From Heptranchias perlo (taxonomy: Eukaryota): a stretch of 64,000 nt of DNA. Location: positions 58,838,001-58,902,000 of the forward strand of contig NC_090336.1 of the NCBI RefSeq assembly GCF_035084215.1, in the 5' to 3' direction. Of the stretch, positions 40,756-62,788 are shown piece after piece (within the stretch, counting starts at the first letter, position 1; every line of letters begins with the position of its first letter). The notes beneath the pieces are model-generated. The model had not been told where the DNA came from. It ran no database searches and was given only the letters and a program-made list of their open reading frames with translations. The translations under genes and the position numbers were made by a program.

Positions 40756-41115
40756 TGACTTTTACTATTCTATAGATTTGAGGGTCTGCTGTCACTGATT
40801 TCACAATAGCTATGTTTATGAGCAGATACAAAGACAAGATCAGGATTATTTGAGTGTGTTTGTTTTTGGATAGCTTGTAAAGGACCAGTAAACTTGAATT
40901 AGAACCCTGTGGGCTAGTTGCTTGCTGTTATGGATTTCTTTTCTTCCTGTATGTTTGAGCACTGTTGTTAATATAATAAATTTCTTGTACTCCATCCAGA
41001 TGCTTCAAAAACGTGGCCTTTCCTAAAGTGCCTTCTATTAAGGTGATAGGAACATAGGAATCGCTAGACGAGAAAAGACCAAGGTCCATCTAGTTCCCCT
41101 TCCACCATCCTGGTA

Positions 41116-41320
41116 TGGAGATGCTGGTGATGGACTGGGGTGGACAAATGTAAGGAGTCTTACAACACCAGGTTATAGTCCAACAGTTTTATTTTGGAGC
41201 TTACCTCCTTCATCAGGTGAGTGAGGGGTCACCTGACGAAGGAGGTAAGCTCCGAAAGCTTGTGATTTTCAAATAAAACTGTTGGACTATTACCTGGTGT
41301 TGTAAGATTCCTTACATTTG
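41116..41320. mobile_element. Penelope-like element remnant: palindromic pLTR insertion
   Basis: Arms 41145-41220 and 41229-41320 are reverse complements; 12-bp direct repeat accatcctggta at 41104-41115 and 41321-41332. Confidence 0.8.
41229..41265 (+). ncRNA. Minimal type I hammerhead ribozyme motif (Penelope-associated)
   Basis: TCAC-CTGACGA-A-GGAG-gtaag-CTCC-GAAA-GC-TT-GTGA: helix I TCAC/GTGA, core CUGAnGA and GAAA, helix II GGAG/CTCC, palindromic AAGCTT in place of helix III. Confidence 0.7.
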
Positions 41321-42532
41321 ACCATCCTGGTAGTCACATGATACAACGATGATGGAGTTGTTGATTAATCAGAGCAATCAATCAGTCTACAACAGACCCA
41401 GAAATGAGGTGAGGAAAACCCCCAGTTGTGGAGAGATTTGGGAACCATAGGTCCAAAGTTACCTTTCCCCCCCCAATCATCCTACATTTACCACATGTCA
41501 TGTCTCAAATTACTCATATACCATATCCCAGAATGTTACTTTCTGAAAGAAATCTATTCAATTTTTATTTGAAAGAATCAATATTAACTGCTTTCACCAA
41601 CCCCGTAAAGAGCCTTTCCCCTAAATTTACCACCCACTCACTGAAATAACCTCACATGGCACCACCATGTTTGCAGCAGCTGTCACTGGGCTGCTCCATC
41701 ACTTGCCTGCAGACTTACACCTCTGCCTTCCTTTATGTTTGCCTACCATTTCTTAGTTCTTCAGCGTTGGCGAAGGCTGCTGATGAGTTGAGGGGTTTCC
41801 TGATGCTCCCTAAAGGCCTTCAGACTTTTTGTCCACCCCCCCCCCAACATTGGCATTCCCCTTTAATCATTCTCATCCCTTTAATTCTGACTTCTGCAGA
41901 ATTTTCCGTACCCACTGGTTTCTTCTCCACGCCCATCTGAGTTTGCACCTGTTGCTAGGAATAATTATGCCAATAAGCTTAGACCGGAGAATTGGGTGCT
42001 ATTTACATGTGAACTTTTGAATGTGATTTGCATCTGTTCCGTATCATTTATGGCTGACATGGACCTGCAGACAAAAAATTACCCCAATATCTATAGTGAT
42101 TCCCCAATGTGAAAACTGTGATCTTATTTTAAACACGCAAAGGGACAAGCTCAGGTCAGGCAGAAAACTGACTGACTTGTAACTTGCACGCAGTGACCTT
42201 ATCTTCTGCGGGAGGCAGCAGCAAGATTCACCAGGTGGCAGTGGATTGATTGGGTTAGACTGATGTGTGAGACAAGATGGCTCCTTCCTCACATTAGTGG
42301 ACAGCTATATAATCCATCGCTAATTATCCAAGTTATTGGACTGTGAAGTAATGAAGGATTAATTAACATTTCCACGTGTGTTTTCCTGATCTTCCACCGG
42401 GTTTTCAGCAGGAGATTGGCAGAAATCCTGGAGAAAAGGTGCAAATGGCCATTTTATGCCATTTCTGTAGGGCTTCTTATGAAGTTGCAATGGGAGATTG
42501 ACAGAATCCCAGCAGAAATTCTACACCATTAT

Positions 42533-53550: not shown

Positions 53551-54032
53551 GTAGTATGACAGTGAAAACAAGGTAAAGCATGAATTCTTCAGCTTTTTCT
53601 GAGGTAATTTCCTTGAAAAAAACAATTCAAGTAACGATATTCAAGGGTTGTTTATGACATGTTGCAAGTGTGACAAAGGAGACTTAAGAATGCCAATTTA
53701 CAGAGTTAGATCTTCATATTCTGTAATGTTTCGAGAGCAGGCCAACATCTGCCTTCCATTTATTGTTTATGCTCAAAAACAATAGTTTTGCAAAGAAATA
53801 AATGTTTTCATGTAACTGTGGCATTTATTTATTTACATGAAAAGAGTAAAGAAAATACAAAATTATTTTCCAGGAACCAATCAATAAAAAACATTTACAG
53901 AAATGTCCCTGGAGAGGTCTCTTACTGACTTCCTTTCAAGTTCTTTCACTGGATGGACTACCCTACTTCCATAAACAAACATCCCTTTCCCCATTGCAAC
54001 AGTATAATATCTGATTCACCATAAGCAGTATC

Positions 54033-61166: not shown

Positions 61167-62788
61167 AAGAAGAAAGAACTTGCATTCATATAGTGCCTTT
61201 CACAACCTCTGTACATCCCAAAGCGCTTTACGGCCAATGAAGTATTTTTGAAGTGTAATCACTGTTCTAAGGAGGGTCGATAAAAGTAGTGCATTTGATG
61301 TAGTCTACATAGATTTCAGCAAGGCTTTTGACAAGATCCCACATGGCAGACTGGTCAAAGAAGTACAAGCCCATGGGATCCAAGGGAGAGTGGCAAGTTG
61401 GATCCAAAATTGGCTCAGTGGCAGGAAGCAAAGGGTAATGACAGGTGTTTTTGTGACTGGAAGGCTATTTCCAGTGGGGTTCCGTAGGACTCAGAAATGG
61501 GTCCCTTGCTTTTTGTGATAGATATTAATGATTTGGACTTAAATGTAGGGGGCATGATTAAGAAGTTTGCAGATGATACAAAAATTGGCCGTGTGGTTGA
61601 TAGTGAGGAGGAAAGCTGTAGACTGCAGGAAGATATCAATGGACTGGTCAGGTGCGCAGAAAAGTGGCAAATGGAATTCAATCTGGAGAAGTGTGAGGTA
61701 ATGCATTTGGGGCGGGCAAACAAGGCAAGGGAGTACATAATAAATGGGAGGATACTGAAAAGTGTAGAGGAAGTGAGGGAACCTTGAAGTGCATGTCCAC
61801 AGATCCCTGAAGGTAGCAGGACAGGTAGATAAGGTGGTTAAGAAGGCATACGAGATACTTTCCTTTATTAGCTGAGGCATAGAATATAAGAGCAGGGAGG
61901 TTATGATGGAACTGTATAAAACACTGGTTAGGCCACAGCTTGTGTACCGTATACAGTTCTGGTCACCACATTACAGGAAGGATGTGATTGCATTAGAGAG
62001 GGTACAGAGGAGATTTACGAGGATGTTGCCAGGACTGGAGAATTTTAGCTATGAGGAAAGATTGGATAGGCTGGGGTTGTTCTCCTTGGAACAGAGGAGG
62101 CTGAGGGGTGATTTAATTGAGGTGTATAAAATTACGAGGGGCCTAGATTAGATAGGAAGGACCTATTTCCTTAGCAGAGAGGTCAATAACCAGGGGGCAT
62201 AGATTTAAAGTAATTGGTAGAAGGATTAGAGGGGAGCTGAGGAAAACATTTTTCACCCAGAGGGTGGTGGGGGTCTGGAACTCACTGCCTGAAAGGGTGG
62301 TAGAGGCAGAAACCCTCAACTCATTAAAAAAGTATCTGGATGTGCACTGAAGTGTCGTGACCTACAAGGCTACGGACCAAGTGCGGAAAAGTGGGATTAG
62401 GCTGGGTGGCTCATTTTCGGCCTGCGCAGACATGATGGGCCAAATGGCCTCCTGTGGCGTAAATTTTCTATGATTCTAAAGCAGGGAAATGCAGCAACCA
62501 ATTTGCGCACAGCAAGGTCCCACAAACAGCAATGTGATAATGACCAGATAATCTGCTTTTAGTGATGTTGGTTGAGGGTTAAGTATTGCTACAGGATACC
62601 TGGGAGAATTCCCCTGCTCTTATTCGAAATAGAGCAGTGGGATCTTTTACCTGAGAGGGTAGACAGTGCAGCATTCCCTCAGTGCTGCACTGGAGTGCCA
62701 GCCTAGATTTTGTACTCAAGTCTCTGTCGTGGGACTTGAACCCACGACCTTCTGACTCAGGTGAGAGTGCTAACGACTGAGCAATGGT
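61167..62788 (-). mobile_element. DeuSINE split by a CR1 insertion (61167-61270 and 62479-62788)
   Basis: SINE tail left of the CR1; core and head right of it. Confidence 0.82.
61271..62478 (+). mobile_element. CR1 LINE (RT to 3' end), degenerate
   Basis: [40 protein letters not shown]. Confidence 0.93.

Follow-up and report, generated by a model that had tools for sequence, protein, structure and literature searches.

A palindromic insert within an older repeat

Positions 41104–41332 of the window (the whole stretch of 64,000 nucleotides analysed here, from contig NC_090336.1 of Heptranchias perlo) hold a short palindromic insert bounded by a 12-bp direct repeat, ACCATCCTGGTA, whose two copies are 100% identical, lie 217 bp apart and enclose 205 bp (Table 1). 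The 12-mer occurs singly in seven of the seven other copies of the surrounding repeat examined, where the left and right flanks of the window are joined, and contigs from 4/4 public runs carry a joint that skips 217 bases, its 12 letters fitting both sides. The duplication is the true target site, and the outline drawn in the first-pass annotation, 205 bp between perfect 12-bp repeats, holds. For the empty site that the same annotation proposed to look for there is one candidate: a contig from organism C tracks the left flank up to where the duplication ends and from there on departs from the insert, which is compatible with an orthologous empty site but falls short of showing one.

The dispersed repeat that hosts the insert has 3,771 candidate copies in the genome, the best 82–86% identical, with a sharp common end near 41046 and a variable other end. 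On the minus strand it probably corresponds to the 3′ end of a LINE of CR1 type; one copy (locus L174) runs on into a frame that, in our reading, resembles the end of CR1 ORF2. No host gene was found among the 92 non-repeat open reading frames of at least 70 amino acids, which gave one Pfam match, a reverse transcriptase (RT) fragment at 61252–61515 on the plus strand (RVT_1, E 1.6e-6). Some 36% of the window's sequence recurs elsewhere in the window. At positions 1–2800 the plus strand holds a decayed RT-like reading of a non-LTR retrotransposon (62% GC over 1–2000), which we presume to resemble Tx1-type elements.

Table 1. Features of the insert and its surroundings (window coordinates)
Feature	Position	Strand	Basis
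Older dispersed repeat hosting the element	41046..41648	-	Genome search, repeat-copy extents
Left copy of the 12-bp target-site duplication	41104..41115	+	Direct repeat search
29-nt tail, on left arm only, without right-arm counterpart	41116..41144	-	Sequence, family comparison
Tailed arm: element 3′ end, ~125 nt before the 16-nt loss	41116..41228	-	Family comparison
Damaged hammerhead	41192..41220	-	Sequence, comparison with L002
Head-to-head arm junction; all but ~3 letters assigned to left arm	41221..41228	.	Family comparison
Intact minimal type I hammerhead motif; predicted cut after 41261 (C-U-U triplet)	41229..41265	+	Sequence, family columns
Tail-less inverted arm, 92 nt	41229..41320	+	Inverted repeat, family comparison
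AATAAA hexamer, part of the family terminus; any function putative	41272..41277	+	Sequence
Small hairpin TGTAAG-ATTC-CTTACA; tail-less arm ends at its 3′ foot	41301..41316	+	Sequence
Right copy of the target-site duplication	41321..41332	+	Direct repeat search

Two inverted matches make up the palindrome, 41138–41194 with 41271–41327 (57 nt, 93%) and 41192–41220 with 41229–41257 (29 nt, 93%, 8 nt between). Arm lengths of 76 and 92 bp, as first annotated, are borne out, comparison with the closely related L002 showing the left arm to lack 16 nt. Apart from this loss, the left arm has four substitutions, three of them CpG-type, and the right arm a single change of its own; the 16-nt loss and the CpG changes are likely later decay. 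The 8 nt between the arms are present as described but are not a separate spacer; they are mostly a templated extension of the left arm, and at their position the family reads GGTGAGTGAG. The AATAAA hexamer likewise lies where it had been annotated. The element orientation is fixed by the 29-nt tail: element sense is the minus strand, so that the damaged hammerhead lies in the tailed copy and the intact one in the inverted copy. As RNA, the insert is predicted to fold into a single long hairpin (−155.6 kcal/mol, z −20.85), as good a fold being reached in 0/200 shuffles. On the plus strand lie two splice-donor-like words, at 41214–41222 (CAG/GTGAGT) and 41242–41250 (GAG/GTAAGC), followed by AATAAA, which are relevant only if a host transcript crosses the insert.

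The hammerhead motif

The intact motif in the right arm reads TCAC CTGACGA A GGAG GTAAG CTCC GAAA GC TT GTGA. Both core boxes (CUGANGA and GAAA) and U16.1-H17 are present, and the isolated 37 nt are predicted to form a 4-bp helix I and helix II, with an AGCU palindrome at 15.2–16.2. The core boxes, the G10.1–C11.1 pair and the palindrome agree, as far as sequence can tell, with the annotated minimal type I hammerhead carrying a palindrome in the position of helix III, and the proposed cut site is supported as a prediction of the same kind. This is the sole match in the window to the core plus helix II with short spacing; besides it there is one loose match, at 53592, whose stem is 3 bp long. 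The left arm retains the 5′ strand of helix I, CUGAUGA and helix II and is without everything from G12 onward, the cut site and the 3′ strand of helix I; the loss of this segment, noted at first pass, is confirmed by the comparison with L002.

A search with hammerhead models, suggested at the outset as a check, came back empty: up to an E of 10, the Rfam scan matched no family of hammerheads, as would be expected of a motif that has no helix III. MicroRNA hairpin families did match in Rfam, far under their gathering scores; these matches reflect the hairpin and were rejected. Across the family, 263 motifs were gathered within four changes of the query, which makes their conservation partly a matter of construction; with that selection, the core columns are near-invariant, and N7 and loop II vary. 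The unpaired base between 9 and 10.1 is A in 261/263 motifs, and the G10.1–C11.1 pair is G-C in 246/263. Common stem variants are mostly G-U wobbles, and the sole position to covary, and that only in part, is the fifth of helix II (A-U in 67, G-C in 49, C-G in 21, G-G in 70 and A-C in 48 of the 263), where the window copy has G-G. One subfamily (L153–L161) has replaced G-C by A-U on both sides of the terminal hairpin, and its helix I gains a U-G wobble.

The motif is predicted to cut only as a dimer, and its partner within the locus lies on the opposite strand and is broken. The dimer requirement, already proposed at first pass, is supported by analogy, as the portions of PMC4209133 available to us report for minimal hammerheads of Penelope-like elements (PLEs) that monomer cleavage was not found and that dimer cleavage was low. 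Dimer-shaped folds score about −15.5 kcal/mol against −22.4 kcal/mol for the best co-fold, the true dimer being a pseudoknot and beyond the scoring of the program. The whole right arm is predicted to adopt a fold other than helices I and II of the isolated 37-nt motif, and a read-through RNA of the insert would form a long hairpin. Because the right arm would prefer another fold and the whole insert a long hairpin, hammerhead activity at this site appears unlikely, and the masking of the ribozyme by a hairpin, as the annotation had it, is supported by the modelled fold of the insert.

The repeat family and its parent element

The 3.25-Gb genome contains 12,924 exact matches to a 32-letter pattern from the tail and 24,322 to the hammerhead pattern (reversed-pattern controls, 0 in each case). 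Opposite hammerhead cores within 30 nt of each other, i.e., head to head, occur at 4,848 places (reversed-pattern control, 1). The family was sampled as the first 90 of the 12,924 tail matches, all exact and all from the first 20 Mb, on contig C1. In these 90 loci, the tailed arms cover one and the same element for lengths between about 40 and 2,200 bases and form a continuum.

The longer copies lead to the parent. Locus L061 has a single open reading frame, of 634 amino acids, with an RT domain (RVT_1, E 2.4e-9), a DKG motif, a C-x4-C-x2-C linker and GIY-YIG-type endonuclease motifs, between which lie two cysteines, with later histidines (likewise in the parent copy L141); the frame is followed by the same hammerhead and tail as in the window, and the locus also has a 1.4-kb inverted copy. 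Locus L141 is arranged as pLTR-ORF-pLTR, with a copy of the terminus on either side of a 3,039-nt unit; its frame starts at an ATG where the tail ends, contains one in-frame stop and ends in a C-terminus matching Pfam GIY-YIG at E 3.3e-4 (score 21.3, just under the cut-off of 22.6). The L061 copy gave no GIY-YIG match in Pfam, and the PDB search returned one match only, at E 0.58. With the same terminus standing 3′ of an RT and GIY-YIG frame in both L061 and L141, the link to Penelope made in the annotation is supported. A CX2-5CxxC linker before the endonuclease is given as a feature of Neptune and Nematis in the available text of PMC8557442, and by its C-x4-C-x2-C linker the parent is probably an endonuclease-bearing (EN+) PLE of one of these two clades. 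The window insert is the last 120–125 nt of this parent, present twice, head to head. A partial-tandem pLTR, a tail, an inverted 5′ copy and a target duplication are all found in family loci. Two of the sampled loci, L062 (5474–9401) and L066 (3916–5486), both on C1, also contain the same 67-bp tandem satellite, ~96% alike.

Arm ends across the family

A tail-less inverted arm accompanies the tailed one in 62 of the 90 tail-anchored loci. In 45 of these 62 the tail-less arm ends 29–34 nt inside the tail pattern, at the foot of the small hairpin, and in 52 the locus is flanked by a duplication of 11–14 bp (scored as the longest exact match, a few of which arise by chance). Two rows were dropped, L019 (the same place as L012) and L074 (no tail found), and the 26 loci scored as having no inverted arm include four (L037, L048, L051 and L142) whose arm is off the locus or short. 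Sixty cases are simple, L089, L140, L043 and L105 being set apart for a separate insertion, tails on both arms or an unresolved junction, and L036 and L060 are clipped at 1,532. Among the 60, 33 have a longer tail-less arm and 17 a longer tailed arm, and in 10 the two agree within 3 nt; the arms overlap by 1–4 letters at 39 junctions. The difference can be large, with 41 nt on the tailed arm and ~600 on the tail-less arm of L039, and ~290 and ~1,700 nt, respectively, in L103. Three loci (L012, L018 and L140) are head-to-head copies with tails on both arms, and L041 has a tailed stump of 120 nt, with a duplication of its own, right beside a longer copy that runs the same way and has no tail.

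Arm ends are not spread evenly along the element. A 24-nt bin immediately 5′ of the hammerhead core (108–131 nt from the tail pattern) takes up 56 of 150, whereas the bins of equal size on its two sides hold 13 and 6 (p 3e-13, with ends treated as independent); 3/150 fall at 84–91 nt, around the predicted cut at 87/88. Several copies without an inverted arm also end just 5′ of the hammerhead. Because arm ends avoid the cut and pile up just 5′ of the core, the templates would have been mostly uncut, and because arms stop there, palindromes of about 200 bp are common.

Formation of the insert

The probable explanation of the window insert is that it is a 5′-truncated, head-to-head 3′ end of a PLE, formed in a single event, with primers supplied by both strands of the target. 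This reading builds on the family membership, the parent with RT and GIY-YIG, the target duplication, the tail on one arm and the continuum of arm lengths, each of which is established above. The endonuclease would nick the two strands ~12 bp apart, and both strands of the cut target would prime reverse transcription on uncut element RNA, one 3′ end starting at the end of the tail and the other ~30 nt further in, at the small hairpin. Both cDNAs would tend to halt just past the hammerhead, and the two short products would join end to end through an overlap of 1–4 letters; they would usually come from the same source copy and sometimes from two. As part of this explanation, the hammerhead is likely a passenger in the insert. 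In vitro, according to the parts of PMC11167929 available to us, a Poseidon protein cuts and extends both strands, uses uncut RNA and begins synthesis at two internal positions that mark the limits of the tail.

The inverted arm could instead come from self-priming or fold-back of a single cDNA, or of an antisense template, from the same parent, which is how PMC3846280, in the text available, interprets junction palindromes; asymmetry would then reflect bases lost later from the middle of the palindrome, and the occasional discordant pair gene conversion. Several observations favour this alternative and count against two-sided priming: in 39 of 47 loci the arms differ at no more than one diagnostic site (random pairs, 18%), four private variants are common to both arms of one copy, and the lengths of the two arms rise together (Spearman 0.57). 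The agreement between arms and the private variants they share fit copying from arm to arm or later conversion, and loss of the palindrome centre could leave either arm longer, with short overlaps. On the other side, the tail stands on one arm while at least 40 extra 5′ bases stand on the other in 19/60 simple cases (up to ~1.4 kb in L103), the target duplications are intact, and in 4/47 loci, counted without gap (deletion) columns, the arms belong to different subfamilies, differing at three or more diagnostic sites as against 0.09 loci expected from decay. Since each arm can hold sequence absent from the other, plain fold-back is insufficient, and we consider the combined alternative unlikely. 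Priming from both strands, usually on one source copy, fits arms that mostly agree together with the four discordant loci. The window copy itself, with one diagnostic mismatch in 13 sites, may have had one template or two.

Closest to the first-pass annotation is the view that the insert is a palindromic mini-element or retrozyme that lacks autonomy and spreads as a unit through transcription, hammerhead cleavage and re-insertion, which we judge improbable. Thousands of copies are of similar size, the available part of a report (10.64898/2026.07.22.740005) describes PLE-derived retrozymes in vertebrates, and the window and L150 have identical junctions, which would allow for palindromes being re-copied now and then. 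However, junctions vary widely among the first 50 head-to-head pairs listed, and both junctions and arm lengths differ between copies. Only six loci fall in the junction class of the window, two of them (the window and L150) sharing the exact letters, with the tail on opposite arms. The commonest junction recurs in several subfamilies with the tail on either side, and the 16-nt-loss pattern of the left arm is matched at two places in the genome, the window and one of another subfamily. Ends lie away from the cut site, the window copy is not a head-to-tail tandem, and no column distinguishes left from right arms in the unbiased locus set; an apparent arm bias at the N7 CpG (p 0.003) arose from loci picked for likeness to the window and is absent from that set. 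The annotation was right that the insert bears an intact ribozyme motif; it overlooked the tail, and the motif lies in the inverted by-copy. A foldback DNA transposon (MITE) with chance hammerhead-like words would account for the near-perfect hairpin, small size and high copy number, and is hardly credible given the unequal termini, the tail on one side, the varying duplication length and a sequence that is the 3′ end of an RT element, a link to an RT frame that refutes it.

Two-sided priming thus being the preferred reading, a wider one may be ventured, for which the odds are against us: the stumps may record PLE integration itself. In this picture a protein dimer would prime both strands using two uncut RNAs, which the palindrome of the hammerhead may hold together, and reverse transcription would halt at the 5′ edge of the ribozyme. 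If so, one model would cover the inverted pLTR and the tail, and a weakly cutting minimal hammerhead would double as a pairing or stop signal.

In sum, the insert is real, was correctly described and belongs to a known kind of element, of which it is an unremarkable stump. The locus carries little weight, being one decaying copy among thousands inside another repeat, and the inverted pLTR, the tail, the target duplication and opposite-strand pairs of minimal hammerheads are already published, as the accessible text of the papers cited below attests. What keeps some interest is that either arm may be the longer, that a few copies combine two subfamilies, and that ends pile up 5′ of the hammerhead, not at its cut. 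Both PMC8557442 and PMC11167929 describe the way in which PLEs acquire inverted copies and tails as unresolved, and the family data (arm lengths, overlaps, mixed-subfamily arms and the stop just past the hammerhead) give predictions for an existing in vitro system.

Comparison with known systems

An inverted 5′ copy, an optional tail of 30–40 bp and a target duplication are the known layout of EN+ PLEs in the available text of PMC8557442, PMC3846280 and PMC2377424. As in Adineta Pen2a (PMC3846280) and Penelope of D. virilis (PMC2377424), insofar as these sources describe them, a tail-less inverted copy stands head to head with a tailed one; the duplication of ~9–14 bp, the partial-tandem parent and the ATG at the pLTR end likewise match these accounts and that of PMC8557442. 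Unlike the EN+ PLEs described in these texts, truncation here leaves just the two termini, in thousands of such stumps. The same texts yielded no description of arm ends clustering just 5′ of the hammerhead. Our literature search, which covered sources other than Repbase, Dfam and subscription papers, found no published two-sided priming model or description of a shark Neptune, nor, in the text accessible there, a stop hot spot at the hammerhead.

The motif itself resembles the minimal PLE hammerheads of Cervera and de la Pena (2014, PMC4209133), as far as that source is available, in its core, the extra base between 9 and 10.1, the G10.1–C11.1 pair, the short helix I and the palindrome in the place of helix III. 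Their paper, in the same portions, reports opposite-strand hammerhead pairs 100–700 bp apart and thousands of solo motifs from truncated PLEs. Helix II, judged here from the letters, has 4 bp and a 5-nt loop, as compared with the 7–8 bp given there for schistosome families.

A further close parallel in the accessible text is Poseidon PAc of Anolis carolinensis (Frangieh et al. 2024, PMC11167929), which has two starts bounding the tail, at a small stem-loop, and whose cutting and extension of both strands and use of uncut RNA are as proposed here. Poseidon PAc differs in belonging to another clade, in being without the linker zinc motif and in that its frame starts inside the hammerhead, and the inverted arm stands outside the model in that text. 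Animal non-LTR retrozymes, in the part of 10.64898/2026.07.22.740005 available, are likewise non-coding, carry a type I hammerhead and derive from PLE pLTRs. They are head-to-tail tandems with a hammerhead in each unit, whereas the window copy is head to head with one motif broken; having no head-to-tail units with a complete hammerhead each, it was rejected as a member of this class.
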